The position numbers were made by a program, and so were the translations under genes. Shown here piece by piece: positions 18,199 through 34,976 of a stretch of 64,000 nt of DNA. The DNA comes from an uncultured Paenibacillaceae bacterium (GTDB lineage: Bacteria > Bacillota > Clostridia > Lachnospirales > Lachnospiraceae), in contig CAURBV010000021.1 in the NCBI GenBank assembly GCA_963523055.1, positions 8,556-72,555 of the forward strand, written 5' to 3'. Numbering within the stretch: the stretch's first letter is position 1; each line of letters begins with the position of its first letter. The notes beneath the pieces are model-generated. The model saw only the letters and a program-made list of their open reading frames with translations, searched no databases and was not told the origin of the DNA.

Positions 18199-19731
18199 GT
18201 GAGTTTATTGGAGATTACAGGCTTATCTCACTCATTTGGAGATAATCAGTTATTTTATGAAACAGATTTAGTTCTTAATAAAGGAGAACATATTGGAATT
18301 ACAGGGCAGAATGGTACAGGAAAAAGTACCCTGATTAAGATTTGTACAGACCAGATCATACCGGATCAGGGCAGAGTGGTGTGGTATCCCGGGACAAAAG
18401 TGGGTTATCTGGATCAATATGCCAGCATGAATAATGAGCTGACAATGAAAGCATTTTTAAAAACAGCATTTGAGGAACTTTATACTCTGGAGAAAAGGAT
18501 GAATGAGCTGTATGACCGTGCAGCCAGAGGGCAGGATGGAGCGCTTAAGGCGGCTGCAGTCTGCCAGGAACAATTGGAGCATCGTGATTTTTACCGGATC
18601 GATTCACAGATTGATCTGGTTTGTCAGGGGCTGGGACTCTCTTCCCTTGGGTTTAACCGTCCCATTGGAGAGATGAGCGGTGGTCAGAGGGCAAAAGTCA
18701 TTATGGCGAAGCTTTTGATTGAAAAGCCAGATGTTTTGCTTTTAGATGAGCCCACTAATTTTTTGGATCATGATCATATAGTCTGGCTTCAGGATTATTT
18801 AAGCGGAATCGAACAGGCATTTATGGTGATCTCTCATGACGAGGGATTTCTGACCAAAACTACAAACTGGATTTGTGATATTGATCAAAAAAGAGTAGTG
18901 AAATATTTTGGCTCTTACGGAGAATTTTTAAAAAAGAAGGCCCAGCTTAGGGAAAATTATACAAGGCAATACTGTGCCCAGCAAAAAGAGATTAAAAAGA
19001 CAGAAGAATTTATCCGTAAAAATATAGCAGGAAGAAAATCAAAAATGGCAAGAGGAAGGCAAAAGCAGCTTGACCATTTGGAACGAATGGAGGCACTGGA
19101 TCAAAAAGAAATCAGACCTTTTTTCCGGTTTGATCAGGGCGCGCTTCCTTCGGCAGGAAAACTGAAGGTATCAAATCTGACGGTAGGATACGGTTCACCT
19201 GTTTTGTCCTGTGTGAACTTTTCCATGAGAGAGGGGGAAAAGGTGGTGATAACGGGATTTAATGGAGCGGGTAAATCGACACTGTTAAAAACTCTGATGA
19301 ATCAGATTCCCGCCATAGGCGGTAATTATTGTTTTTCTGCAAAGGCAGTCATCGGGTATTATGAGCAGGATCAGGTATGGGAAAATGACAGTCTGACACC
19401 CTTAGAGATCGTATCGGATCATTTCCCATTGCTGGAGAGAATGGAAGTGAGAAAAAAACTGGCTCAAAACGGGGTATCAAAAAAACATGCGCTGCAGCCT
19501 GTGGGGACCTTAAGCGGAGGGGAACAGGCAAAAGTTAAGCTATGTCTGCTGACAGGAAGAACTTATAATTTTTTAATACTGGATGAGCCAACCAATCATC
19601 TGGATGTACAGGCAAAACTGGCACTTAAAGAGGCACTAAGGGAATTTTCCGGCACTGTTTTGCTGGTTTCCCACGAAAATTCCTTTTACAGGGACTGGGT
19701 GGACAGAGTGATCGATATCGGATCTTATTGA
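18199..19731 (+). CDS. ABC-F family ribosome-associated ATPase (YfmM-like)
   Basis: Two ABC domains (GQNGTGKST, GFNGAGKST; MSGGQ, LSGGE; DEPTN), no TM, short linker. Confidence 0.9.
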   Translation: MSLLEITGLSHSFGDNQLFYETDLVLNKGEHIGITGQNGTGKSTLIKICTDQIIPDQGRVVWYPGTKVGYLDQYASMNNELTMKAFLKTAFEELYTLEKRMNELYDRAARGQDGALKAAAVCQEQLEHRDFYRIDSQIDLVCQGLGLSSLGFNRPIGEMSGGQRAKVIMAKLLIEKPDVLLLDEPTNFLDHDHIVWLQDYLSGIEQAFMVISHDEGFLTKTTNWICDIDQKRVVKYFGSYGEFLKKKAQLRENYTRQYCAQQKEIKKTEEFIRKNIAGRKSKMARGRQKQLDHLERMEALDQKEIRPFFRFDQGALPSAGKLKVSNLTVGYGSPVLSCVNFSMREGEKVVITGFNGAGKSTLLKTLMNQIPAIGGNYCFSAKAVIGYYEQDQVWENDSLTPLEIVSDHFPLLERMEVRKKLAQNGVSKKHALQPVGTLSGGEQAKVKLCLLTGRTYNFLILDEPTNHLDVQAKLALKEALREFSGTVLLVSHENSFYRDWVDRVIDIGSY

Positions 19732-20470: not shown

Positions 20471-20508
20471 AAAAGCTGTCCGGCACATCTGTTCGCCGGG
20501 CAGCTTTT
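20471..20508. terminator. Bidirectional terminator
   Basis: AAAAGCTGTCCGGC / GCCGGGCAGCTTTT between convergent genes. Confidence 0.85.
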
Positions 20509-20525: not shown

Positions 20526-21434
20526 TTATGTGAAGTCTTTTACTATTTTAATATATTCATTTGCATGATAATTCAAATACGATCCTTTTCGGTAGGCAGC
20601 GACAAAGTCCACCATGGTATTTGGCGTGCCAAAGGAAAAGCATATCAGCTTATCGAGGAAATTCATATGCTTTAAATGGGTGTCTGTGACAAAGGTAACT
20701 CCATAATTTCTGGAAGCCAGCTCTGCTCCTGCCCGGATATTGCTTGTAATTAGCATTTTATCAGGCTGGAAGCCAACCTGCTGAAAGACACGTTCAATTG
20801 TCTGACGGGAACGCTGATCGGTCTCCTGAAGAATTAATATTTCATCCTGCAGAAGGCTTAAGTCAAACCATTGGTGATTGCAATCCTCTCTTGTTATTCC
20901 CTGATCTGCCAGCGGATGTCTTTTTGACATAACAAGTAGCATTTCTTCATGGCTGATGACCTCATAATCAACCTCAGGACTTTTCACCGGTTTGTTGAAA
21001 AAGGCCAGATCTGTCTCACCGGAGAGGATCATGCTTTCCAGAGTGGTTGAAGCAGACTCCTTAATATTTATAATGACATTTGGATACAGACTCTTGAAGA
21101 TAGGAAGAGTACAGGGGAGCATATAAGTTCCGCGCATAACTGGAAATGCAATATTTAATACCCCAATATTGCTCTTAATAATATCGGACAGTTCATTGTC
21201 CAATTCTTTTTTCAGCTGGAGGATTTCTCCGGCTTTTTTTACGTATCGTTCCCCCGCATAGGTCAGTATGAAACGGTTTCCAATTTTTTTAAACAGCTTT
21301 TGTCCAAGGCTGCTTTCCAGACTTTGCAGAAACTTGGTAAGCGTAGGCTGGGAAATATAGAGCGAATTGGCAGCTTTTGTTATATTCTGAAACCTGGCAA
21401 CCGCTAAAACATAACTCAAATCTTTAAAATCCAT
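20526..21434 (-). CDS. LysR-family regulator
   Basis: NITKAANSLYISQPTLTK HTH, LTYAG; divergent from the catabolic operon. Confidence 0.93.
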   Translation of the reverse strand: MDFKDLSYVLAVARFQNITKAANSLYISQPTLTKFLQSLESSLGQKLFKKIGNRFILTYAGERYVKKAGEILQLKKELDNELSDIIKSNIGVLNIAFPVMRGTYMLPCTLPIFKSLYPNVIINIKESASTTLESMILSGETDLAFFNKPVKSPEVDYEVISHEEMLLVMSKRHPLADQGITREDCNHQWFDLSLLQDEILILQETDQRSRQTIERVFQQVGFQPDKMLITSNIRAGAELASRNYGVTFVTDTHLKHMNFLDKLICFSFGTPNTMVDFVAAYRKGSYLNYHANEYIKIVKDFT

Positions 21435-21487
21435 GGTATCACCTCTTTATCCATTTTACCTGAAGTTAATCAAAAAAACAAGAAAAT

Positions 21488-21554
21488 TATAGTCATAAAC
21501 TATACTTTATATGAAAAACATGAATTAGACATATAGTTAAGAACATGTTATATT
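21488..21554 (+). promoter_or_regulatory. LysR binding site and SigA promoter of the carboxylate operon
   Basis: Palindrome TATAGT-N5-ACTATA (T-N11-A) at 21488-21504; TAGACA-17 nt-TATATT at 21526-21554. Confidence 0.6.
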
Positions 21555-21626
21555 TACCATATCGATCGAATTATAATTCAGAGATGGTAACCGTTAGATA
21601 AAATTTAATAATGAGGTGGAACAGAC

Positions 21627-22901
21627 ATGAACTACATAGATATTATAGCTATTATATTCTTATTTGTAGTGGTGGCAATTGGGTTTATAAAAAAGTGCAA
21701 TATTGGTGTTCTGGCAATCGGATCAGCGTTGATTCTTGCCAGATTGGGGGGCTTAAGTGACAGCAAGGTACTGGCCGGTTTTGATGCAAAATTGTTTATA
21801 ACATTGGTTGGAGTTTCATTTTTATTCAGCGTTGCCCAGGTTAATGGCACGCTGGAGCTTGTTGCAAAAAAGGGAATCGCACTTGCAGGAAAGAGAACCT
21901 ATCTGGTTCCGATCATCATTTTCCTTGTAGCTGGACTTCTGACGATTATCGGACCTGGCAATATTCCGGTAGGAAACTTAATGACAGTTGTTGCAGTTAC
22001 AGTTGCAGTCAGCATGGGAGAAAATCCGCTGTTGTTTGCACTGGCAGCCAAGGTGGCAGCCAATGGGTTTACGCTGTCCCCATTAACGCCTCCGGGAGTA
22101 TTGATGGAGAAGCTGGGAACCGAAGCTGGTTTCACCGGATTTGAAATCCCGGTTATGTGGAACTGCATTTTGTGGGCAACAATCCTGATGATAGGTTTCT
22201 CAATTTACTATAAGATCTGGAAGATAAAACCTGCAGATAAAAATATCGCATCACTGGAAGTAAAAGAGCATCTCAATAAACAGCAGTGGATTACAATCAC
22301 TGGTGTACTGGCTATGGTAGTTATGGTTGTTGGTCTGAATATTAACGTAGGTCTGGCTTCGTTTTTAGTAGCCGCAGCATTGGTGATTTTAGGCGTGACC
22401 GATGAAAAGAAAGCGTTAGTAAAGGTACCATGGGGAACACTCATTTTAATCTGCGGTGTAGGCGTGCTGATGAACGTTGTTATAGAGCTGGGCGGACTGG
22501 ATCTGGTGTCTAAAGGACTTTTATCTATCATGACGCCAAAGACAGCGGCTCCAATCATTGGAATCAGTGCTTCTATATTATCATTCTTCAGTTCCACCAC
22601 AGGTGTGGTAATGCCTTCCATGATCCCCACACTTGGACCGATTGTACAGTCATTAGGAACTGGTAATGCTGGTTTTGTTGAGCTTGCCAGTGTTGTAATT
22701 ACTTCTTCTTTATCAGCAGCATTCAGCCCGGCATCAACCGGAGGCGGACTGATCCTGGCCGCATATATGACAGCGTCAAACGCTGAGGACAAAGATCAGG
22801 AGCAGAATAAACTGTTCGGCCGTTTGTTTTTAATCGCATTTGTTTGCGTAATCGCAAATGCAATTTTAGCAACAATCGGAATTTATGGAATTATTCGATA
22901 A
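21627..22901 (+). CDS. Di/tricarboxylate transporter (SLC13/ion-transporter superfamily)
   Basis: Many TMs; VPWGTLILICGVGVL, SFFSSTTGVVMP, SPASTGG. Confidence 0.75.
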   Translation: MNYIDIIAIIFLFVVVAIGFIKKCNIGVLAIGSALILARLGGLSDSKVLAGFDAKLFITLVGVSFLFSVAQVNGTLELVAKKGIALAGKRTYLVPIIIFLVAGLLTIIGPGNIPVGNLMTVVAVTVAVSMGENPLLFALAAKVAANGFTLSPLTPPGVLMEKLGTEAGFTGFEIPVMWNCILWATILMIGFSIYYKIWKIKPADKNIASLEVKEHLNKQQWITITGVLAMVVMVVGLNINVGLASFLVAAALVILGVTDEKKALVKVPWGTLILICGVGVLMNVVIELGGLDLVSKGLLSIMTPKTAAPIIGISASILSFFSSTTGVVMPSMIPTLGPIVQSLGTGNAGFVELASVVITSSLSAAFSPASTGGGLILAAYMTASNAEDKDQEQNKLFGRLFLIAFVCVIANAILATIGIYGIIR

Positions 22902-22915
22902 TTGGAGGAACCATC

Positions 22916-24058
22916 ATGTTAGATAGGCAAAGAAGAAGAATTCCCTGTTCTATTATGCGGGGAGGTACCAGTAAAGGTGTGTACATACTGGAGAATTATC
23001 TTCCTTCTGAGGAGCAGGCAAGGGATGAGATTCTCATGAAAATCATGGGAAGTCCTGATATCAAGCAGATTAATGGTCTGGGCGGTGCAGCTTCTGTTAC
23101 AAGTAAGGTTGCAATTATAGGGGTATCCAGCCGTGAGGATGCAGACGTGGATTATACCTTTGCACAGGTATCAGTAGATAAACCCCTTGTAAGCTATAAA
23201 GGAAACTGCGGCAATATTTCTTCCGGAGTGGGACCTTTTGCGGTTGAACAGGGACTTGTTAAAATAACCGAGCCTGTCACAATTGTTAAAGTGTTTAATA
23301 CTAATACAGGGAAAATTATTGAAGAAGAGGTACAGGTAAAAGACGGAGCAGTCAAATACGATGGTGATTTTGCAATTGCGGGAGTCCCGGGAACTGGTGC
23401 ACCGGTTAAAATGAAGTTTCTTGATCCTGCCGGAAGTGTTTCCGGAAAGCTTCTTCCCACCGGAAATGCGGTGGATCTACTGGAAGTTCCTGGCATTGGA
23501 CAGGTAGAAGTATCCATTGTTGATGCAGCCAATCCACTGGTATTTGTAAAGGCTTCTGATCTGGGATTGACGGGAAAAGAACTTCCAAAAGATCTGGATT
23601 CAGACCAGGAAAAACTGGATCTTTTAGAGACTGTCAGAGGACTTGCAGCTGTTAAAATGGGATTAATTACCGACTATAAGAAATCAGCATGGGAAATGCC
23701 CGGAATCCCTAAAATGACTTTTGTGGCAGAACCAGGTGAGTATGTGACCAACTCAGGCAGTACCATAGAAGGGGATAACATTGATCTGTTATCCCGCATG
23801 ATGTCAATGCAAAAGACCCATCCCACCTACGCCATGACTGGTGCCATGTGTACAGCTGCTGCTGCCATTATTCCAGGCAGTGTGGTAAATCAGGTTTTAA
23901 GACCGGAAGCAGATACAAAGTTTATCCGTATCGGCCATGCAGGCGGTATTTTGGAAGCAGGTGTTGATTTCCATGTGGAAGGAAATGAAACAATCGTGGA
24001 AGATACATTTGGGTTCAGAACCGCAAATCTGATACTGGAAGGATTTACATATTGTTGA
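22916..24058 (+). CDS. PrpF-family isomerase (aconitate/3-methylitaconate isomerase-like)
   Basis: Start at ATG after GGAGG; MRGGTSKG, MGSPD..QI.GLGG, TSKVAII, GNCGNI, H....MTG. Confidence 0.92.
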   Translation: MLDRQRRRIPCSIMRGGTSKGVYILENYLPSEEQARDEILMKIMGSPDIKQINGLGGAASVTSKVAIIGVSSREDADVDYTFAQVSVDKPLVSYKGNCGNISSGVGPFAVEQGLVKITEPVTIVKVFNTNTGKIIEEEVQVKDGAVKYDGDFAIAGVPGTGAPVKMKFLDPAGSVSGKLLPTGNAVDLLEVPGIGQVEVSIVDAANPLVFVKASDLGLTGKELPKDLDSDQEKLDLLETVRGLAAVKMGLITDYKKSAWEMPGIPKMTFVAEPGEYVTNSGSTIEGDNIDLLSRMMSMQKTHPTYAMTGAMCTAAAAIIPGSVVNQVLRPEADTKFIRIGHAGGILEAGVDFHVEGNETIVEDTFGFRTANLILEGFTYC

Positions 24059-24107
24059 TTGGGAATGATGAAACAACTTAATTGTTAGAATGCAGGAGGA
24101 TTTAGAC

Positions 24108-26393
24108 GTGGTAAAACTTTATGACAGCGGCGTGTATCTGATTCATGGTCAGGAAATTGTTTCTGAGGAAGATTACCTTAAATCAGGAACTTTGACAGAT
24201 TCAGAGAAAGAAGAAGCAAAAAAAGGGACAATCTCTTATCATATTTTAAAGAACCATAACACTTCTGAAGATATGTCTCATTTGAAAATTAAATTTGATG
24301 CCATGACCTCCCATGATCTCACATTTGTAGGAGTTATCCAGACCGCCAAAGCATCTGGTATGGATAAATTCCCCATTCCTTATGTACTGACCAACTGCCA
24401 CAATTCTTTGTGTGCAGTTGGCGGTACGATAAATGAAGACGATCATGTTTTTGGTTTGTCTGCGGCACAAAAGTATGGGGGCATCTATGTTCCTCCTCAT
24501 ATTGCAGTCATTCATCAGTATATGAGGGAAATGCATGCAGGCGGCGGTCAGATGATTTTAGGTTCTGATTCCCATACCCGTTATGGTGCATTGGGAACCA
24601 TGGCAGTTGGTGAAGGTGGCGGTGAGCTGGTAAAACAGCTTCTTTGCGATACTTATGATCTGGCTTACCCGGATATTATTGCAGTCTATCTGACTGGAAA
24701 ACCAAATCCCGGAGTCGGTCCACAGGATATTGCCCTGGCAATTATCGGTGCAGTTTTTAAAAATGGTTATGTAAAAAATAAGGTTATGGAATTCGTGGGA
24801 CCAGGAATTGAATTTATGAGCACGGACTTCCGCAATGGAATTGATGTAATGACAACGGAAACAACCTGTTTAAGCTCCATATGGAGTACGGATGCGGATA
24901 CAAAAAATTACTTATCCGTTCATGGAAGAGAGGCAGATTACCAGGAATTAAAACCTGCAGCAAGGGCTTATTATGATGGCTGTGTATATGTGGATTTAAG
25001 CACAGTTAAGCCTATGATTGCACTTCCATTCCACCCAAGCAATACCTATGAAATTGATGAGTTGAATGAAAATCTGGTTGATATTCTGCGCCAGGTAGAA
25101 AAAGAGGCAGAGAAAGTAAGCAAGGGACGGGCTCCATTTACTCTGACCGATAAAATTATTAATGGTAAACTTCAGGTTCAGCAGGGTATTATTGCCGGAT
25201 GTGCCGGAGGCAATTATACCAATGTAATAGAAGCTGCCAATGCTTTAAAAGGAAGAGACTGCGGCTATGGGGAATTCTCCCTTTCCGTTTATCCTTCTTC
25301 ACAGCCTGTTTACATGGATCTGGTGAAGAAAGGTGCTGTAACAGACTTAATGGAAGCAGGAGCCGTGTTAAAAACTGCATTCTGCGGACCGTGTTTTGGT
25401 GCCGGTGATACCCCTGCTCACAATGGGCTGAGTATCCGTCACACCACCAGAAACTTCCCCAACCGGGAAGGTTCCAAGCCTGGAAATGGTCAGATGGCAG
25501 CCGTTGCACTGATGGATGCCCGCTCTATTGCAGCAACTGCAGCCAACGGAGGCGTGCTTACTTCTGCAGAAGCGTTTGACTGCTGGGAAAACATACCGGA
25601 TTATCAGTTTGACAGCACTGTATATAAGAAGAGAATATACCAGGGATTTAATCATGAACAAAAAGAGAAAGAACTGGTATGCGGCCCCAATATTAAAGAC
25701 TGGCCGGAGATGAGCGCTTTGACAGAAAACATTCTTTTAAAAGTCTGCTCTAAGATTATGGATGAGGTTACAACCACAGATGAGTTGATTCCTTCCGGCG
25801 AAACTGCTTCTTACCGATCCAATCCATTGGGACTTGCTGAATTTACCTTATCCAGAAGAGATCCCGCGTATGTGGAAAGAAGTAAAAGCGTTGACCGTCT
25901 GGAAAAAACAAGAACTGCAGGAAAATCTCCGGCAGAATTAGATCCCGAGCTTACAAAGATCTATGATACAGTCAAAAAAATACCTGGAATGGAAACTCTT
26001 GAAATATCTGATACAGAAATTGGAAGTATGATTTATGCAATCAAACCGGGAGATGGTTCAGCCAGAGAACAGGCAGCCAGCTGTCAGAGAGTGATTGGCG
26101 GACTTGCCAACATAACCAGAGAATATGCGACAAAACGCTATCGTTCCAATGTAATGAACTGGGGAATGCTTCCATTTCAGATGAAAGATGAACCGGAATT
26201 TGAGACAGGCGATTATATATTTGTCCCTGGAGTACGCACCGCATTGGAAAGCGGAAATATGTCAGATATCACAGCCTATGTGATAAAAGAAGATAAAACC
26301 AAAGAAATTCATTTATATATCACGGACATGACTCAGGAAGAACGTGAGATTGTTAAAGCAGGAAGCTTAATCAATTACAACAGAAAAAGGTAA
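24108..26393 (+). CDS. Aconitase-family hydratase (YbhJ-like)
   Basis: GTG start after [65 protein letters not shown]. Confidence 0.9.
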
Positions 26394-26409
26394 TAAGAGG
26401 AGGAACAAT

Positions 26410-26709
26410 ATGGAAATCGTGCAGCCGGCAATGGCCGGAACACTGGAATCCAGCGACTGCCAGGTTACGGTAGAACCTGGTAATAATGGCATAGAATTTA
26501 ACCTGGAAAGTGTGGTTATCAATCAGTTTGGTAATCAGATTAAAAAGGTTGTGATGGATACTCTTAAGAATTTGGAAGTCAGTCAGGTGAAAATCTCTAT
26601 CGTAGACAAAGGAGCACTGGATTGTACAATAAAAGCGCGTGTAGAAGGAGCATTGTTCCGTTCTGTCGGGCAATTTGATCATCTTCCATGGGGAGGAGCT
26701 GTTCGATGA
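26410..26709 (+). CDS. citD: Citrate lyase acyl carrier protein (gamma subunit)
   Basis: AGTLESSD, QFG.QI, DKGALDCTI.ARV. Confidence 0.93.
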   Translation: MEIVQPAMAGTLESSDCQVTVEPGNNGIEFNLESVVINQFGNQIKKVVMDTLKNLEVSQVKISIVDKGALDCTIKARVEGALFRSVGQFDHLPWGGAVR

Positions 26710-27608
26710 TGAATCCGGAAAAGAAACGATTAAGAAGAACCATGATGTTTTTAAATGCCCAGAAACCGGGGTTAATCAAAGATCCCTACATTTATAAGCC
26801 AGATTCCATTATGCTGGATTTAGAGGATGCAGTGGCCGAAAACCAAAAGGATGCTGCACGTTTTTCCCTTTATCATGCACTGAAAGAAATCAATTACCAT
26901 GGATGTGAACGGGTAGTCCGGATTAATGCCCTGGATACCCCTTATTGGAAGGAAGACATCCGCTGTGCAGTAGCAGGCGGATGCGATTCCATACGAATTC
27001 CAAAAACAGAGCGGGCAGAGGATGTGAAGCTGGTTGAGGAAGCGGTTGCTGCAGCAGAAAAAGAGTTTGATATTCCAGAAGGAAGAACCCTTATTATGGC
27101 AGCCATTGAATCCGCCAGAGGAGTCATGAAGGTTCTTGAAATCTGTGAATCCTCAGAACGGCTTTTTGGTATAGCCCTTTCCGGAGGAGATTACACCAAA
27201 GATTTACAGACACGCATTACCGGAACCGGAGTGGAGCTCATGGGTGCAAGGCAGCATATGATCATAGCAGCCAGAGCGGCCGGCGTTCAGTGCTTTGATA
27301 CCGTTTATACGAATTTAGATGACATGGAAGGCTTCCGAAACGAGGTTGAATCCATTCATCTAATGGGATTTGACGGAAAATCAATTATAAATCCAAGACA
27401 GATCAATATTGTACATGAAATATTTACACCAACAATGAAAGACATTATCTTTGCAGAAAAGGTAGTCAAGGAAATCGATGATAAGAAGGCAAAGGGAATC
27501 GGTGTATTTACCGTTGATGGAAAGATGATTGATATCGCATTTTATGATGGTGCGATACGTACCATTTATATGGCGAAAGCATCGGGTGTATATAAGGGGG
27601 ATTTGTAA
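26706..27608 (+). CDS. citE: Citrate lyase beta subunit (citryl-ACP lyase)
   Basis: RRTMMF, DLEDAV, VVRIN, AIESARG, GFDGKSIINPRQI, DGKMID. Confidence 0.9.
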   Translation: MMNPEKKRLRRTMMFLNAQKPGLIKDPYIYKPDSIMLDLEDAVAENQKDAARFSLYHALKEINYHGCERVVRINALDTPYWKEDIRCAVAGGCDSIRIPKTERAEDVKLVEEAVAAAEKEFDIPEGRTLIMAAIESARGVMKVLEICESSERLFGIALSGGDYTKDLQTRITGTGVELMGARQHMIIAARAAGVQCFDTVYTNLDDMEGFRNEVESIHLMGFDGKSIINPRQINIVHEIFTPTMKDIIFAEKVVKEIDDKKAKGIGVFTVDGKMIDIAFYDGAIRTIYMAKASGVYKGDL

Positions 27609-27609
27609 A

Positions 27610-29172
27610 ATGATAAATGCAGTTGGAAGAGATATCCCGGATGAGATCTTGAAAGCCACTGGAAAAGAAGTGTTCCAGGGAATTCACTACAGAGACGGAT
27701 ATACTTATAAAAAAGATGGCCCGGTAACCAGATGTGTGAGTGATAATACGAAGAGTAAATTAGTAGACAGTATTCATGATGCACTGATTAGATGCAACAT
27801 AAAAGATGGTATGACTCTTGGCTTCCATCATCACTTTCGGGAAGGTGACTATATAGTCAATATGGTAATGGAAGAAGTACACCGGCTGGGCATTAAAAAT
27901 ATCACCATTTGCGCCAGTTCCCTTGGTAAGGCTCACGATCCAATTGTTCCATACATTGAAGATGGAACCATAACCAATATCCAGTCCTCCGGTGTCAGAG
28001 GAAAAATCGGACAGGCTATTTCCGCCGGAAAGTTAAAAGGATTGGCCATCATGCGTTCTCATGGAGGACGGGTTCGTGCCATTGAAAGCGGAGAAACCAG
28101 AATCGACATCGCATTTATCGGTGCACCAACCTGTGACGATTATGGCAACTGCCGTGGAATCGGAGGCAAGAGTAACTGCGGTGTTCTTTCCTATGCTCTT
28201 GCAGATGGAGATTATGCCGACCAGGTCGTTGCAATTACAGACTGTCTGGTTCCTTTCCCCAATTTTCCTGCACACATCAGCATGACAAAGGTGGATTATG
28301 TAGTCGTGGTAGATGCCATCGGAAATCCAGATAAGATTGCCACAGGTGCTGCAAAACCCACCACTGATATGAGAAAGCTGATGATGGCTGATTACTGTAC
28401 CCAGTTTGTTGTTAATACTCCTTATTTTAAAGATGGATTTTCTTATCAGACCGGCGTGGGAGGGGCATCCATCGCTTCTACTATTTCACTTTCTAAAATT
28501 ATGAAGGAACGCAATATCCGCATGCGTTTTGGTGTAGGCGGCCTGACAAAACCCATGTGTGATCTGTTGGCAAATGATCAGGTAGACTGTCTGCTGGATA
28601 CCCAGGATTTCGATCTTGATGCAGTCGAGTCAGTAAAAGATCTAAAACACTTCCGTATTTCCGCCGGAGAGTATGCAAATCCGTTTAATAAAGGCGCGGT
28701 GGTGAATAAACTGGATTTTGTCATTCTGGCTGCTCTTGAAGTGGATATTAATTTCAACTGTAACGTGGTGGTTGGCTCAGACGGAGAGATAACCGGAGCC
28801 CAGGGAGGCCATCCCGATACAGCAGCCGGTGCCAAATGTGCAATCGTCATCGTTCCACTATTACAGGGAAGAATTCCCGCGGTCTGTACGGAAGTCACTG
28901 CAGTGACCACTCCGGGAGAAAGCATTGATGTAGTAGTGACTGATTATGGAATTGCCATCAATCCAAAACGACAGGATTTAATTGACTGCATGAAAGGGGT
29001 AGACCTTCCATTTAAAACAATTGAAGAACTTCGGGACATTGCCTATTCCATGGTTGGAGAGCCGGAGAAAGTGGTTTTTGATGATAAGGTTGTAGGAATT
29101 ATCGAAAGCCGGGATGGAACCATATTAGATGTCGTGCGCAAGGTGAAAGAATATACTTTCTCAGATAATTAG
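27610..29172 (+). CDS. citF: Citrate lyase alpha subunit (ACP transferase)
   Basis: FHHHFREGD, RSHGGR, DTQDFD, GGHPDTA, TPGESIDVVVTDYGIAINP, RDGTILD. Confidence 0.93.
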   Translation: MINAVGRDIPDEILKATGKEVFQGIHYRDGYTYKKDGPVTRCVSDNTKSKLVDSIHDALIRCNIKDGMTLGFHHHFREGDYIVNMVMEEVHRLGIKNITICASSLGKAHDPIVPYIEDGTITNIQSSGVRGKIGQAISAGKLKGLAIMRSHGGRVRAIESGETRIDIAFIGAPTCDDYGNCRGIGGKSNCGVLSYALADGDYADQVVAITDCLVPFPNFPAHISMTKVDYVVVVDAIGNPDKIATGAAKPTTDMRKLMMADYCTQFVVNTPYFKDGFSYQTGVGGASIASTISLSKIMKERNIRMRFGVGGLTKPMCDLLANDQVDCLLDTQDFDLDAVESVKDLKHFRISAGEYANPFNKGAVVNKLDFVILAALEVDINFNCNVVVGSDGEITGAQGGHPDTAAGAKCAIVIVPLLQGRIPAVCTEVTAVTTPGESIDVVVTDYGIAINPKRQDLIDCMKGVDLPFKTIEELRDIAYSMVGEPEKVVFDDKVVGIIESRDGTILDVVRKVKEYTFSDN

Positions 29173-30063
29173 ATGATAGATACAGATAAGAAGAACTATG
29201 ATACTTATGCCCACTGGATTGGAAACATGGCAGGATCAGCATTGCTGGAGGAAGTTTATACGGCACCAAAGCCCGGGCTTGTGGATCCGCTCAGTAATGG
29301 AGCCCACCGGGATATGAATCTGCTTACATTTAAAAGAAGCACAGATGCTTTGGTGCCTTATTTTTGTAAATTTGCGGAAACAGGAATTCATATGTCTGAA
29401 AAACCAGAAGGCTGCTTTTTAAAGATCCGTCAGATTGGAATTCAGGCAGAAAATGCGATGTATGAAGCAACCGGACAGGTTAATACCCATAAAGGGGCTG
29501 TGTTTACTATGGGTATCTTATGTGCGGCTGCCGGAAGCTGTTTTAAAAAGTATGGTCAGGTGTCCATTAGCAGTCTGATTATGCAGGAACAAAAAATGGT
29601 TCGGAATATTTTATTAAATGAACTTGACTCCATACAGTTTAAGAACAGTAAAGATACCCATGGCCAAAAGAATTTATGTACTTATGGTTCCAGAGGAATC
29701 AGGGGAGAGGCGGCAGATGGTTATCCTTCCGTCATAAACCTGGCATTACCGGTTATCAGACAGGGAAAAAAAGAGGGACGCTATTGGAATCTGGTGAAAA
29801 TCCAGACGCTGTTTACCCTGATGAGTCAGGTGGAAGATGGAAACATCCTGTCCAGGTGCAGGCGTGAGGGGCTTAAGGAAGTACAGAAACTGTCTCAGGA
29901 ATTTCTGCTTACAGGGGGTGCCTATTCCCAAGGTGCGATTGAGGAGTTAATAAAACTTGACACCTATTTTATTCATAAAAACTATAGCAGCGGCGGGTGT
30001 GCCGATTTGCTGGCGGCCTCTATCTTTTTATCTGAGATTGAGGATGCGTGGGCAGGAAAGTGA
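29173..30063 (+). CDS. citG: Triphosphoribosyl-dephospho-CoA synthase
   Basis: PKPGLVD...GAH.DM, NTHKGA, GIRGEA, GG.ADLL. Confidence 0.92.
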   Translation: MIDTDKKNYDTYAHWIGNMAGSALLEEVYTAPKPGLVDPLSNGAHRDMNLLTFKRSTDALVPYFCKFAETGIHMSEKPEGCFLKIRQIGIQAENAMYEATGQVNTHKGAVFTMGILCAAAGSCFKKYGQVSISSLIMQEQKMVRNILLNELDSIQFKNSKDTHGQKNLCTYGSRGIRGEAADGYPSVINLALPVIRQGKKEGRYWNLVKIQTLFTLMSQVEDGNILSRCRREGLKEVQKLSQEFLLTGGAYSQGAIEELIKLDTYFIHKNYSSGGCADLLAASIFLSEIEDAWAGK

Positions 30064-30071
30064 GCAGGTGA

Positions 30072-31070
30072 ATGATGCTGGAGGGAAGACCATTAGAGGG
30101 CCGTGCACTGGAGGAATTAAAAATATTTTTAGCCAGTCAGGATCTTAACTATGATGAGGGGATTGAATATAGTGCATGTATACTTGACGATGATTACAAA
30201 ATCATTGCAGCAGGTTCTGTGGAAGAGAATGTGTTAAAGTGCATTGCAGTGGATCCTCATCATCTTGGAGAAGGATTATCCGGCAGTGTGGTATCCCAGC
30301 TGATTCAGTATGAGTTTGAGCATGGAAGAAGCAGGCTTGTCCTATATACAAAACCAAAGAATGAGGAACTGTTTAAGAGTTTAGGATTTTATACCGTGTT
30401 CCAGACAAAATCTGTATTGTTTATGGAGAATGAGAAACAGGGATTTGAAAAATTTATCCGGGCAATACAGGAAATAACACCAATCGATGCCAAAGATTAT
30501 GGGAGAATAGTTGGTGCAATCGTAGCCAACTGTAATCCGTTTACACTGGGACACCGGTATTTAATAGAAGAAGCTTTGAAACAGTGTGACTATCTGCATG
30601 TGTTTGTATTATCGGATAAGCGGACCTTTTATGGCGCAGAAGACCGTTATCAGATGGTTTTAAAGGGAACGGAAGATTTAAATCGGGTCATAGTTCATCA
30701 GGCTTCTGATTATATGGTTTCTGCCGCCACTTTTCCCACCTACTATCTGAAAGAAAGGACGTTTGCAAATAAAGCCAATTGTGAATTTGATTTGGAACTG
30801 TTTGCAGAAATAATTGCCCCTCCCCTTAAGATAACCAGACGGTTCGTAGGAACAGAACCTATATGCAGAGTAACTGGTTCTTATAATACAGCAATGAAAC
30901 AGATTCTCCCTGAATATGGAATTGAAGTCATAGAGATTGAACGAAAAATACAGGGAGAGGAAGTGATCAGCGCTTCCAGAGTCAGAGAAGCTGTTAAAAA
31001 AGGCAGGTTTCAGGATGCAGAAAGACTGGTACCGGAAACGACATGGAACTATTTAACACAAAAAACATAA
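30072..31070 (+). CDS. citC: [Citrate (pro-3S)-lyase] ligase
   Basis: GNAT-like N-terminus (LKCIAV), NCNPFTLGHRYL, SAATFPTY, RFVGTEP, ISASRVR. Confidence 0.93.
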   Translation: MMLEGRPLEGRALEELKIFLASQDLNYDEGIEYSACILDDDYKIIAAGSVEENVLKCIAVDPHHLGEGLSGSVVSQLIQYEFEHGRSRLVLYTKPKNEELFKSLGFYTVFQTKSVLFMENEKQGFEKFIRAIQEITPIDAKDYGRIVGAIVANCNPFTLGHRYLIEEALKQCDYLHVFVLSDKRTFYGAEDRYQMVLKGTEDLNRVIVHQASDYMVSAATFPTYYLKERTFANKANCEFDLELFAEIIAPPLKITRRFVGTEPICRVTGSYNTAMKQILPEYGIEVIEIERKIQGEEVISASRVREAVKKGRFQDAERLVPETTWNYLTQKT

Positions 31071-31094
31071 GTATAAAGGCAATTTAAAGTAGGA

Positions 31095-31134
31095 AACAAA
31101 GACCATCGGCTTACTTTGTCGGTGGTCTTTTGTT
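31095..31134. terminator. Terminator of the cit operon, probably bidirectional
   Basis: AACAAAGACCATCGGC / GTCGGTGGTCTTTTGTT. Confidence 0.8.
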
Positions 31135-31173
31135 ACCCCTATAAAGGCTTATTGCTGACAAAACAAGGCAGTC

Positions 31174-32736
31174 TTATACCAATTCTGTGACTTTGAGGAT
31201 AATCAGGGAGAGCCTGACTCTTATAATAATATCAATCTTGTTTAAATCAAGGCCGGTGATATCTTTAATCTTTTGAATGCGGTATTTTAGTGTATTAAAA
31301 TGAATGTGCAGACAATCCGAAGCAGTGTGCAGATCCAGCTGATGCTCCAGGTAGCAGGTCAGTGATTCCATTAAGGAGGTACTATGAAGCCTGTCATATT
31401 CAATCAGATCATGAATACCAGGCTCAACTATGTGAACAGGCGGGTTTTGTAGCAGATAGGTTTCTGCCAGATCTTCTAAAATATAATCTTCATAATAAAA
31501 CAATTGTCCCAGGCCTTTCTTTTGTCTTGAAAAATCAAAGGCTTTTTTTGCCTGCTCTAAGGCATGGCCTGCCTGTGAAAGGTCTAAAAAGCCGCGGCTT
31601 ACTCCTGCAAACAAATGATTTGCACTTAGTATCTGCAGAAAATTCTGCAGACGGTCATCATCAAGAGGAGACTTCGTGCATTGATCAGAATCCAAAAGAA
31701 TCACTATTTTACCTTCGAACATCTGAGTCAGTCCCCCGATAAAAAATTTATTCAGCAGTGTACAAATATAAACCATTTTTTCTCTGGAGTCAAAAAGGTC
31801 ATTGTCTGTAATATAGAGTAAGTATATGTATTTTTTAAAATGGAGTCCGGATTTCTTCATTAACTGCCTGATCTTTTCCGGATTGGGCTGCTGGGTTTTT
31901 AAAACATAAAGAAGTATCTCCGATATTGGGGAATCGTAGGAGCAGTAAAAATGCGCATCATTACATAGCCGGATTCCCGCAAAATGGGTGAAGATCTGTA
32001 ATATTTCACTGGAAAAATCCGTAAAGGGGTGGTTGTATTCCAGTTCGCTGACAAAAGCGATATTCATATGACTCTGTCTGATGCGAAGAATACGCTGGCG
32101 GTGTTTATAAATATCCGGGTAATTCATAATATATGGCGTCGGGGAATTGATCATATGACGTTGAAATGCGTAATCAGCGTTGCAGATATCGTTGTATTTT
32201 TGAGAGAAAGTCCGATTCTCCCTATATTCCATCCACTGAGGCTCATCCAACTGTTCTTCACCCCAGCAGGAGACCACCGGATTGTGGGCGGAATCGATCA
32301 CTCTTAACGGATTACCAACATATTGAAAGGTCACTTCCAGCATTTTCTTCATGGCATCGGGATCGTCTAATGCCTGGATCATCTCTTCCTTGTACTGGTA
32401 CAGGGTCAGTTCCTCGAAAAAGAATTCCTCCGTCAGGTTAATTAATTTTGGCAATGTCACCAGACTGGGATCACAGACAATCCAGTTGATTTTATTTTCC
32501 ATGCCATAGGAGCGGGGGAGTTCCTTATCTCCAATGAGCAAAAGATTGACAGCTTCTGAAAGCGGGAGAGAGTCAGGCAGGTCGGATACATGTGCGATGT
32601 AAACCATATCGGAACAGAATGCCTTAAGTAAGCCATCCAGACAACGGCATGATCTGATGGTCAAATCATTACTAATATGACAATGACAGCTGTAATTCTT
32701 TAAAAACTCCGCCAGATTTTTCATGTGCTTTGCCAT
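31174..32736 (-). CDS. PucR/CdaR-family regulator
   Basis: C-terminal L..YL......AS..LHIHFNTLKYRI.KI..I.G.DL. Confidence 0.88.
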   Translation of the reverse strand: MAKHMKNLAEFLKNYSCHCHISNDLTIRSCRCLDGLLKAFCSDMVYIAHVSDLPDSLPLSEAVNLLLIGDKELPRSYGMENKINWIVCDPSLVTLPKLINLTEEFFFEELTLYQYKEEMIQALDDPDAMKKMLEVTFQYVGNPLRVIDSAHNPVVSCWGEEQLDEPQWMEYRENRTFSQKYNDICNADYAFQRHMINSPTPYIMNYPDIYKHRQRILRIRQSHMNIAFVSELEYNHPFTDFSSEILQIFTHFAGIRLCNDAHFYCSYDSPISEILLYVLKTQQPNPEKIRQLMKKSGLHFKKYIYLLYITDNDLFDSREKMVYICTLLNKFFIGGLTQMFEGKIVILLDSDQCTKSPLDDDRLQNFLQILSANHLFAGVSRGFLDLSQAGHALEQAKKAFDFSRQKKGLGQLFYYEDYILEDLAETYLLQNPPVHIVEPGIHDLIEYDRLHSTSLMESLTCYLEHQLDLHTASDCLHIHFNTLKYRIQKIKDITGLDLNKIDIIIRVRLSLIILKVTELV

Positions 32737-32981
32737 AAACGTCCTCTTTTCATATGAATTTATGAGTCATTATGGAAAATATTATATCACTGTTTTTATG
32801 TGGATTCCAGAATGGATTGTTAAAAATAATTAAAAAATGACGATTAAATTGTTTGATTTAACAAAAGACATCTTAGTAAAACCAATAAGAAACTGGTAAA
32901 AGTTTATAGATTCAGACATACCCTTTTCCTTTTGTATTTGATACTATTTTTTCATAGCAACAATAAAAGGAGAGGACAAAT

Positions 32982-34976
32982 ATGCAGAACAAATACGAAA
33001 AGCTTTTTGAACCGGTTAAAATCGGCAATGTAACATTGAAAAACCGTTTTGTTATGGCACCCATGGGCCCTCAGGGTCTGGGAGACTCCGTGGGAGGCTT
33101 TAATCAGAGAGGGATTGATTATTATGTGGAGCGGGCCAAGGGCGGAACAGGGCTTATTATCACAGGAGTATGTTTCGTTGATAATGAAGCAGAGCATCAC
33201 TCCATGCCAAGTACTCCCTGTCCCACCATTAATCCCGTGCATTTTACCCGGACTGCAAGAGAAATGACAGAACGGATTCATGCTTATGATGCCAAAGTAT
33301 TTCTCCAGTTAAGTGCTGGCTTTGGCCGGGTTGCACCTCCTGTTGATCCGGATTTAAAGCCGGTATCTGCGTCAGAGATTATGAACCGCTGGGTAGATAT
33401 CCCTTGCAGAGCTTTGACAAAAGAGGAAATCCATCGGATTGTGAAACGGTTTGGGGAAGGAGCAGCAATTGCTAAAAATGCGGGATTTGATGGAATTCAG
33501 ATTCATGCGGTTCATGAGGGTTACCTGCTTGACCAGTTTGCGATCTCATTTTTTAATAACAGAACGGATGAATACGGCGGGAGCCTGGAAAACCGCCTTC
33601 GCTTTGCAAGAGAAATTGTGGAGGAAATAAAGAAGACCTGCGGGGATGATTTCACAGTTACGCTTCGTTACAGTCCCAAATCATTTATAAAAGACTGGCG
33701 TGTCGGTGCTCTTCCTGGTGAAGTATTTGAAGAAAAGGGCCGTGACCTGCCCGAGGGGATTGAAGCAGCGCAGTTGTTGGAACAGTACGGGTATGATTCC
33801 CTTGACGTGGATGTGGGCTGCTATGATGCGTGGTTTTGGAATCATCCGCCAATGTATCAGAAGAAAGGACTTTACATACCTTATGCAAAAGCAATAAAAG
33901 AGGCAGTAAATGGTCCTGTTATCTGTGCTGGCCGTATGGATAACCCGGATCTGGCTCTTTCTGCCATTGAAGACGGAAGCTGCGATTTAATCGGACTTGG
34001 ACGTCCTCTTCTGGCAGACCCCGATTATGTAAATAAACTGCGTTTCGGCCAGACGGAACTGATTCGTCCGTGCCTTTCCTGTCATGAGGGATGCCTCGGC
34101 CGGATGGTTCATTATGGATGGCTGAACTGTGCTGTCAACCCTGCCTGCGCAAGAGAACGGATTACAGAATTAAAGCCAGTTCTGAAAAAGAAAAAGGTAA
34201 TGATTATTGGCGGAGGAGTGGCTGGATGCGAAGCTGCCAGGGTGTTAAGTTTAAGAGGTCATCAGCCAGTGATCTATGAAAAAACAGACCGTTTGGGAGG
34301 AAATTTAATTCCAGGAGGAACACCGGATTTTAAAGAAGATGATCATGCACTGGCAAAGTGGTATGAGAACACATTAAAAGACTTGTCAGTGCCGGTTTAT
34401 TATAATACAGAGGTGACTCCTGAAATGGTTGGCAAAGCCAGACCAGATACGGTCATTGTTGCAACCGGTTCAAGGCCTAAGGTATTCGGTCTTGGAGATG
34501 ACAGTAAGGTATTCACAGCCGAAGAGGTTCTTCTCGGAATCAGAGATCCGGGCAGTCGTGTTGTGGTTTTAGGGGGAGGTCTGGTTGGTTGTGAACTGGC
34601 TTTGTGGCTTAGGAATAACGGAAAAGAAGTTTCCATTGTGGAAGCCCAGGACGGTTTGTTAAAACTAAATGGTCCGCTGTGTTTTGCCAATATCAGTATG
34701 CTTTTATCCTTGATTGAAAGCAAAGGAGTATCTGTTTATACAGGTTCCAAAGCAATTCGTACCACGGAACAGGGAGTTCTGATTGAGACTGGAGCTGGAG
34801 AAGAGGAATTAAACGCGGATTCTGTAGTGCTTGCAGTTGGTTATGATTCCGAAAACAGACTTTATGATAAATTAAAATATGATGTCAGGGATCTTTACAT
34901 ATTAGGAGATGCAAGAAAGGTTTCCAATATTATGTACGCGATCTGGGATGCATTTGAGGTGGCATCAAATATCTGA
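32982..34976 (+). CDS. 2-enoate reductase-like flavin/Fe-S oxidoreductase (OYE family)
   Basis: KNRFVMAPMG, YYVERAKGGTGLIITG, HAVHEGYLLDQF, CLSCHEGC...CAVNP, GGGVAG and GGGLVG Rossmann motifs. Confidence 0.88.
   Translation: MQNKYEKLFEPVKIGNVTLKNRFVMAPMGPQGLGDSVGGFNQRGIDYYVERAKGGTGLIITGVCFVDNEAEHHSMPSTPCPTINPVHFTRTAREMTERIHAYDAKVFLQLSAGFGRVAPPVDPDLKPVSASEIMNRWVDIPCRALTKEEIHRIVKRFGEGAAIAKNAGFDGIQIHAVHEGYLLDQFAISFFNNRTDEYGGSLENRLRFAREIVEEIKKTCGDDFTVTLRYSPKSFIKDWRVGALPGEVFEEKGRDLPEGIEAAQLLEQYGYDSLDVDVGCYDAWFWNHPPMYQKKGLYIPYAKAIKEAVNGPVICAGRMDNPDLALSAIEDGSCDLIGLGRPLLADPDYVNKLRFGQTELIRPCLSCHEGCLGRMVHYGWLNCAVNPACARERITELKPVLKKKKVMIIGGGVAGCEAARVLSLRGHQPVIYEKTDRLGGNLIPGGTPDFKEDDHALAKWYENTLKDLSVPVYYNTEVTPEMVGKARPDTVIVATGSRPKVFGLGDDSKVFTAEEVLLGIRDPGSRVVVLGGGLVGCELALWLRNNGKEVSIVEAQDGLLKLNGPLCFANISMLLSLIESKGVSVYTGSKAIRTTEQGVLIETGAGEEELNADSVVLAVGYDSENRLYDKLKYDVRDLYILGDARKVSNIMYAIWDAFEVASNI

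Follow-up and report, generated by a model that had tools for sequence, protein, structure and literature searches.

The window analysed here is the whole stretch of 64,000 nucleotides from contig CAURBV010000021.1. It contains nine genes in which lysR, encoding a LysR-type regulator, diverges from eight genes for a carboxylate carrier (matC), a PrpF-family isomerase (prpF), a YbhJ-type hydratase and citrate lyase functions (citD, citE, citF, citG and citC). We propose that this set probably serves the breakdown of trans-aconitate in an anaerobe of gut/soil type. A preliminary description of this DNA had seen in it one tightly packed unit with one promoter, a LysR site and one terminator. We found all nine genes intact and in the order given there, the eight co-oriented ones being separated by 14, 49, 16, -4, 1, 0 and 8 bp. 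The genes and control elements are listed below.

20471..20508, both strands: hairpin separating lysR from the nitroreductase gene upstream (z -5.3 on the + strand and -5.0 on the - strand against shuffles), likely a terminator for both flanking genes
20526..21434, - strand: LysR-type regulator (Pfam HTH_1 and LysR_substrate)
21488..21526, + strand: putative LysR operator, a TAT-N11-ATA palindrome with an ATGAATT box downstream
21526..21554, + strand: candidate promoter of the sigma-70 type (extended -10) directly adjoining the operator, by consensus match only (10 of 12)
21627..22901, + strand: predicted MatC/CitMHS-like carboxylate importer of the ion transporter superfamily (PF07158 and PF03600 above cut-off)
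22916..24058, + strand: PrpF-family isomerase, probable aconitate delta-isomerase (PF04303, 451 bits)
24108..26393, + strand: YbhJ/PRK11413-type Fe-S hydratase, probable aconitase (NF008503 above cut-off)
26410..26709, + strand: citD, acyl carrier protein (ACP; TIGR01608 above cut-off)
26706..27608, + strand: citE, citryl-ACP lyase (TIGR01588, 351 bits, below the cut-off of 443.4)
27610..29172, + strand: citF, acetyl-ACP:citrate ACP transferase (TIGR01584 above cut-off)
29173..30063, + strand: citG, triphosphoribosyl-dephospho-CoA synthase (TIGR03125 above cut-off)
30072..31070, + strand: citC, citrate lyase ligase (TIGR00124 above cut-off)
31092..31137, + strand: operon-closing hairpin (-23.8 kcal/mol, z -5.1; none of 200 shuffles reached this stability), likely an intrinsic terminator

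The postulated LysR site could be placed at 21488-21526, and it is kept in relatives. Its pattern occurred in 50 of 67 regions upstream of cognate lysR genes and in 19 of 32 after dereplication (mean 0.12 and maximum 1 in shuffles), a control that overstates the enrichment because these very sequences had served to define the pattern by eye. The strict form of the operator occurs once in the genome. Promoter-like sites were at chance level in the region (37 against 32.3 +/- 6.3 in shuffles) and internal candidates exist; a single promoter for the operon is plausible. Among public sequencing runs, one of RNA and one of unstated kind contained small shares (0.08 and 0.24), in short and shallow contigs. 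The expected terminator corresponds to the 3' hairpin at 31092-31137, which a simple terminator scan did not list, and no significant hairpin was detected in the gap between prpF and the hydratase gene (24055-24110, z -0.63).

The isomerase is a member of the PrpF/Mii/LigU family and the single PrpF-family gene product of the host genome (hereafter G000, with contigs cited as C4, C6, C16 and C19). PF04303 matched it over its full length and the catalytic lysine and cysteine were present, K64 and C98 aligning with K73 and C107 of Shewanella PrpF. Among solved structures, the nearest was Mii (386 bits, about 49% identity by hand count), followed by PrpF (289 bits) and YbhH (235 bits). The enzyme did not qualify as the PrpF of the 2-methylcitrate cycle, since it scored 333.5 bits against the TIGR02334 cut-off of 440.55 and has no prpB, prpC or acnD neighbours. 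A plasmid search for characterised isomerases gave no usable reference among the best 40 of 509 matches, all of which were below 47% identity. Mii acts on methylitaconate and itaconate (PMC4720413), and the MatC family is described as one of dicarboxylate carriers. Both points favour a second route offered in the preliminary description, in which itaconate would be converted through citraconate and citramalate to acetate and pyruvate. The same isomerase-hydratase-lyase logic is found when Mii, DmdAB and Dml of the Eubacterium barkeri nicotinate fermentation are considered together with the citramalate lyase of the methylaspartate pathway.

The residues of the isomerase argue against this route. 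K266 and S297, noted together with H302, match K281 and S312 of Shewanella PrpF, whereas Mii lacks equivalents and has Met and Phe at these positions; an identity with Mii was rejected for this reason. K266 was kept in 57 of 57 aligned rows and S297 in 55 of 57, and a lysine also occupies the K266 position in LigU and YbhH. We take Lys281 and Ser312 of Shewanella PrpF to hold the third carboxylate, a role that we did not find in the text of the Shewanella PrpF paper. PrpF itself isomerises trans- to cis-aconitate (PMC5690661), and the window isomerase is, on its sequence, a probable aconitate delta-isomerase.

The hydratase scored 1395.5 bits with NF008503, the equivalog model of YbhJ/PRK11413 (cut-off 641), and was 70% identical to Escherichia coli YbhJ. 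It fell below the cut-offs of the AcnA, AcnB, mitochondrial-type and PRK07229 aconitase equivalogs. We nevertheless recovered the aconitase hallmarks, namely a single-chain four-domain fold, three cluster cysteines, the catalytic His and Ser, the DSH motif and the substrate arginines. With residues counted from the ATG at 24090 (the predicted start is a GTG at 24108, after AGGAGG), C371, C432, C435, H104, D160-S161-H162, E257, R454, R459, S657 and R659 were invariant in 44 sequences and aligned with mitochondrial aconitase. The roles of aconitase Ser642, His101 and the cluster cysteines are described in PMC8184944. Mitochondrial aconitase was also the best Foldseek match of the AlphaFold model (template modelling score 0.74; mean predicted local distance difference test, pLDDT, 86.8). 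R576, likewise invariant in the 44 sequences, aligned with an arginine of PRK07229 aconitase. By its spacing, it may be the counterpart of the gamma-carboxylate-binding Arg580, in a loop of low pLDDT; in three PDB searches the Arg580 loop was not aligned to mitochondrial aconitase. In a yeast study, the ability to use aconitate was shown to depend on an arginine of this type (PMC3556520).

A clue to the activity of the hydratase came from its paralogues. G000 has a second YbhJ-type hydratase on contig C16, 71% identical to the window copy and encoded directly behind citrate synthase, as well as an isocitrate dehydrogenase-like gene. The only other PF00330 proteins in G000 were two LeuC/HacA-type large subunits on C19, where two tandem LeuD/LeuC-like (HacA/HacB-type) pairs, below the LeuC and LeuD equivalog cut-offs, lie at L247:2635-6157. 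YbhJ-type enzymes were present in 48 of the 49 genomes of the genus, PRK07229 aconitases in 11 and AcnA in one, so that 37 had neither of the latter two; these genus counts cover the three types, and AcnB and the mitochondrial type were searched in G000 only. Fourteen of the best 80 hydratase loci, on which the neighbourhood counts rest, adjoined citrate synthase and 19 adjoined cit genes, none both. In the hydratase tree, the citrate-synthase-, lyase- and isomerase-linked copies were interleaved with E. coli YbhJ in one clade of 47 of the 58 rows. The isomerase and hydratase trees were made with FastTree only, and we claim no order of events and no donor from them or from the CitE tree. The window hydratase, the citrate-synthase-linked copies and YbhJ were identical at 28 putative active-site positions picked by hand, whereas divergent clades (about 50% identity) differed at residues 74-75. 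The YbhJ-type family is thus likely, on this comparative evidence, to be the housekeeping aconitase of the genus, and the simplest reading would make it an aconitase of a type named by no current model. We found no description of YbhJ activity in the open-access literature. YbhJ of E. coli (L084) and that of Klebsiella branch within the clostridial sequences, beside the window protein (FastTree), a placement behind which a transfer is possible.

The preliminary description had also likened the locus to ybhD/H/I/J of E. coli, a unit that shares with the window a LysR regulator, a PrpF-family isomerase, a carboxylate carrier and the YbhJ hydratase. This likeness held for the hydratase, which is orthologous (70% identity, all 28 residues), and failed for the isomerase, the LysR and the carrier. 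The two isomerases are 40% identical and belong to different clades, the LysR proteins share 27% over 167 residues, the window carrier has no match to E. coli YbhI, and there is no lyase in the E. coli unit. YbhD appears to repress, and the function of ybhDHIJ is left open in PMC9068703.

The following genes are predicted to encode a citrate (pro-3S)-lyase complex, with CitD, CitF, CitG and CitC above their cut-offs. The operon lacks citX, and the sole citX of the genome lies on contig C4, in a second, canonical cluster (citX-citD-E-F-G-C). This cluster also encodes a response regulator, a CitMHS carrier and a sensor kinase in which Cache domains were matched weakly. The C4 and window copies are 83% (CitE) and 85% (CitF) identical. 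Compared with the canonical citCDEFXG arrangement, the operon lacks citX, the two-component system and a CitMHS, CitS or CitT carrier, and its cit genes are preceded by those of the isomerase and hydratase. Window CitE did not reach the citrate lyase equivalog cut-off and was only 41% identical to E. coli CitE; since the canonical C4 copy also fails (347.6 bits), the TIGR01588 cut-off appears to miss this CitE subfamily.

CitE phylogeny, a check suggested in the preliminary description, placed the window with citrate-context and Acidaminococcus lyases, apart from those linked to methylaspartate. The tree was obtained by a quick IQ-TREE search on 53 rows dereplicated from 99 sequences. Window CitE fell into a shallow clade of 33 rows with the canonical copies and those of the Acidaminococcus genus (that of G001; support 94), whereas 11 methylaspartate-linked rows grouped in a separate clade of 13 rows (support 97). 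Its identity was 83-87% to copies whose clusters contain citX, a sensor kinase and CitMHS, three of which adjoin oxaloacetate decarboxylase genes, and 74-76% to CitE of 15 of the 17 Acidaminococcus-genus genomes, in seven of which this is the sole match. Window CitE deviated at two of the 170 columns that do not vary among 13 sequences from canonical clusters and the Acidaminococcus genus. Its identity to CitE of glutamate mutase/methylaspartate clusters, which are regarded as citramalate lyases (PMC4682846), was 32-40%. An assignment as the citramalate lyase of the methylaspartate pathway was rejected on this identity, on the separate clade and on the lack of any TIGR01502 match (methylaspartate ammonia-lyase) in G000. 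We also rejected as proof of specificity 38 "diagnostic" columns separating the CitE groups; E. coli CitE has the methylaspartate-linked residue at 17 of them, so they track lineage rather than specificity.

The lyase bears on the itaconate route as well. Citramalate lyases are homologous to citrate lyase (PMC4682846), which would be in favour of this route, and CitE-type lyases and the known routes use (S)-citramalate (PMC4682846, PMC12290011), while the citrate lyase of E. coli does not act on citramalate (PMC4682846). The stereochemistry is unfavourable. An aconitase-type hydration of citraconate sets the carboxymethyl arm at the pro-R position and gives (R)-citramalate, and CitE-type lyases remove the pro-S arm. 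This mismatch, together with the distance of CitE from the methylaspartate-linked lyases, makes the itaconate branch unlikely. The retention of K266, S297 and R576 points in the same direction. Moreover, members of the isomerase clade often have no dedicated hydratase or lyase, which fits an isomerase product that is a central metabolite. According to PMC12290011, no itaconate-fermenting bacterium was known in 2025. Were this route nevertheless the right one, the locus would represent the first fermentation of itaconate or citraconate. It would combine an isomerase like Mii with a YbhJ-type hydratase for citraconate and a lyase of the acyl-carrier type switched to (R)-citramalate, and an anaerobe could live on the host immunometabolite itaconate. 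We regard this as very improbable.

Named close relatives were Lacrimispora xylanisolvens DSM 3808 (L002) and a Lacrimispora sp. (L012), with hydratases 96% identical to that of the window, which indicates a Lacrimispora-like host within the Lachnospiraceae. An isomerase at least 92% identical was present in 12 of the 49 genus genomes, G000 included. In the synteny survey, which had also been suggested, 10 of the 11 other carriers were examined and nine showed the order lysR, matC, prpF, hydratase, citE, citF, citG, citC. Among these ten relatives, one locus stops at a contig edge and the hydratase of G065 (89% complete) is in four pieces. Two or more citF matches were present in each of the 12 carriers, which makes the operon lyase an additional copy in every case.

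The operon could also be mainly a second citrate-use unit induced by citrate, or it could protect aconitase by removing the inhibitor trans-aconitate, with little energy gain. Trans-aconitate does inhibit aconitase (PMC11495376), and some relatives have lysR-prpF beside the housekeeping genes for aconitase, citrate synthase and isocitrate dehydrogenase. In G034 (locus L256), lysR (87%), matC (92%) and citDEF (88-96%) are followed by an old-yellow-enzyme gene, and the isomerase, hydratase, citG and citC are missing there, so that citrate may be recognised by the regulator and carrier as well. On the other hand, a complete citrate cluster, equipped with a separate carrier and two-component system, is already present in the genome, the dedicated importer and full lyase set point to catabolism, and the isomerase and hydratase were retained in the operon of all ten close relatives examined. 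We consider a main role in citrate use or protection to be quite unlikely.

Beyond the genus, the isomerase subfamily was found in 5 of 400 other genomes of the family, two of which link it to the hydratase and citD-citE in other gene orders. A metagenomic survey recovered 80 loci, 76 of them with an isomerase at least 60% identical, which were clustered at 90% into 25 groups. A LysR at least 42% identical adjoined the isomerase in 22 groups, and the LysR subfamily appears, from this association, to be cognate and to travel with the isomerase. MatC was present in 19 groups, the hydratase in 14, citDEF in 4 and the aconitase-citrate synthase-isocitrate dehydrogenase genes in one. The lyase linkage was a minority, 13 of 76 loci, and many contigs were short, so that gene absences in these loci carry little weight. 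Lyase-linked cases sit on separate branches of the isomerase tree, which makes the coupling recurrent even though it is a minority. Some isomerase loci have a LysR and a carrier alone. In two groups (L167, L168, L186 and L197), an RraA/LigK-like gene of the aldolase/oxaloacetate decarboxylase family was found near the isomerase module.

Several related modules have other contents. Units of the lysR-hydratase-citDEF(GC) type with neither isomerase nor carrier are common (L003, L008, L016, L258 and L259) and are candidates for the use of cis-aconitate or isocitrate. At L011, L017, L049 and L075 a bigger module surrounds the hydratase, with a PRK07229 aconitase, two LysRs, a 7-bladed lactonase, MatC, an isocitrate/isopropylmalate dehydrogenase-like gene of 385 codons, citDEF, the YbhJ-type hydratase and citG, not every gene being seen at each locus; the presence of a lactonase suggests that the substrate could be the lactone of a tricarboxylic acid. 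At L135-L142, L161, L162, L077, L030 and L046, other PrpF clades (39-49%) are paired with divergent YbhJ-type hydratases (about 50%) in which residues 74-75 become VY or SP, with a lactonase, a 2-hydroxycarboxylate carrier or a dehydrogenase nearby. These pairs probably represent several further tricarboxylate pathways. At L265-L271, orphan citDEF genes (CitF about 54%) are accompanied by a LysR and in some cases by citC, never by a carrier, and have their own CitE clade.

This diversity has to be considered together with the possibility that the window operon has the same architecture and another substrate, such as methyl- or homo-aconitate, or mainly cis-aconitate or isocitrate, leading to a (substituted) citrate cleaved by CitDEF. 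PrpF-family enzymes act on several tricarboxylates (PMC5690661), isomerase-free modules are common, lactonases, 2-hydroxycarboxylate carriers and extra dehydrogenases accompany related modules, and the hydratase has an unusual Cys103 and His75. However, these additional genes are found alongside other clades of the isomerase and alongside divergent hydratases changed at residues 74-75, whereas the window hydratase and lyase are unchanged compared with the housekeeping and canonical copies, and the operon has no prpBC-like genes. Another tricarboxylate is, in our view, an unlikely substrate.

A close parallel to the locus came from Acidaminococcus. Acidaminococcus fermentans ferments trans-aconitate by a route through citrate, oxaloacetate and pyruvate (Hartel and Buckel 1996, cited in PMC3035267). 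The genome paper lists adjacent genes for MatC and aconitate hydratase, and in the parts of it available to us no isomerase gene was assigned and the route was given no gene-level test (PMC3035267). From the gene order we infer that the listed genes are orthologues of the window module. We recovered in the genus the same lysR (53-57%), prpF (59-66%), matC (41-43%) and hydratase (68-70%), the lysR-prpF-matC-hydratase module being common. In Acidaminococcus sp. LBK-2 (L019), these four genes form one unit (53%, 64%, 42% and 68%, respectively); an exact look-up of its hydratase gave no match. Isomerases at least 58% identical were found in 10 of the 17 genomes of the genus, and nine further loci comprised seven with the full module (two with an inserted dehydrogenase), one without the hydratase and one cut by a contig end. 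The Acidaminococcus isomerases branched within the clade of the window isomerase (33 rows, support 99), and several share its operator. The module and the lyase genes are apart in Acidaminococcus, whereas the window has all steps to oxaloacetate in one operon and its lyase is duplicated.

A second parallel is TarR-TarA-TarB, through which Bacillus velezensis FZB42 assimilates trans-aconitate (PMC11495376). As described there, it shares with the window a LysR, a PrpF-family isomerase and an importer around a divergent promoter, and thus the logic of the route as far as cis-aconitate; the isomerase loci with a LysR and carrier alone resemble it. Unlike the window operon, it is aerobic, feeds the tricarboxylic acid cycle, uses an importer of the major facilitator superfamily and a TTATAA operator, and has no hydratase or lyase (TarA was compared by its description only). 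The window has instead the MatC/CitMHS-like carrier and the TAT-N11-ATA plus ATGAATT operator. Table S6 of PMC11495376 lists tarA homologues in four Lacrimispora and six Acidaminococcus species, which does not fix the substrate because the screen was set at >30% identity and also lists Eubacterium barkeri.

We thus favour, with a probability of roughly 0.75, the reading that the operon serves an inducible anaerobic catabolism in which trans-aconitate would be converted to cis-aconitate, citrate and finally acetate and oxaloacetate. Bound to the palindrome at 21488, the LysR protein would switch on the operon with aconitate acting as its effector, and the MatC-type carrier would import trans-aconitate. 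The PrpF-family enzyme would convert it to cis-aconitate by the allylic rearrangement known in its family, with K64 and C98. The YbhJ-type [4Fe-4S] hydratase would add water to yield citrate, as its paralogy with the housekeeping copy suggests. CitDEF, activated by CitC and carrying a prosthetic group made by CitG and the C4-encoded CitX, would cleave citrate into acetate and oxaloacetate. The latter could be converted to pyruvate by a Na+-pumping decarboxylase, whose alpha and beta genes (oadA and oadB) are present in the genome, on contig C6. The membrane sensor kinase of the C4 cluster would presumably not see intracellular citrate, so that the second lyase copy is probably needed.

Of the two branches proposed in the preliminary description, that from trans-aconitate is backed by four independent lines of comparison, all of them indirect (hydratase, lyase, residues of the isomerase, and Acidaminococcus synteny), that from itaconate is disfavoured, and the chemistry is not new. 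Several points weigh against the trans-aconitate reading. Among solved structures, Mii stands nearest to the isomerase, and the carrier family is one described for dicarboxylates. In the hydratase, Cys103 replaces aconitase Asp100 and His75 replaces Gln72. The low CitE score, its distance from E. coli CitE and the 17 shared columns, the minority status of the lyase linkage and the G034 locus belong here as well. We found in the open-access literature no assay of any enzyme from these subfamilies.

Outside the operon, a PucR-type regulator gene diverges from one for a BaiCD/bilirubin-reductase-like flavoenzyme at 31174-34976 of the window, and a similar pair lies on contig C4. These PucR and old-yellow-enzyme genes were rejected as operon members, since only some relatives have them next to the operon. 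On the other side, an ABC-F family ATPase is encoded at 18199-19731 (368.9 bits, just below the cut-off of 380 of the ribosomal-protection model).

We found no description of the operon itself in the open-access literature. The pathway of trans-aconitate fermentation and the aerobic TarRAB system have both been published. To a specialist, the finding would be useful and satisfying rather than startling, because its parts are annotated families and the chemistry is known. If right, it would provide a single-operon genetic blueprint for the anaerobic fermentation of trans-aconitate, a route known from enzyme work on Acidaminococcus and, as far as the open-access literature shows, tied to no tested genes. 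Grasses and maize are rich in trans-aconitate (PMC11495376), so that a marker for its fermenters would be useful in rumen, gut and soil studies. The function of YbhJ/PRK11413 also becomes directly testable. The comparative evidence suggests that the YbhJ type, which has Cys instead of the conserved Asp100, may be the ordinary aconitase of many Lachnospiraceae, unrecognised by aconitase models, and that YbhJ may be a third aconitase of E. coli.

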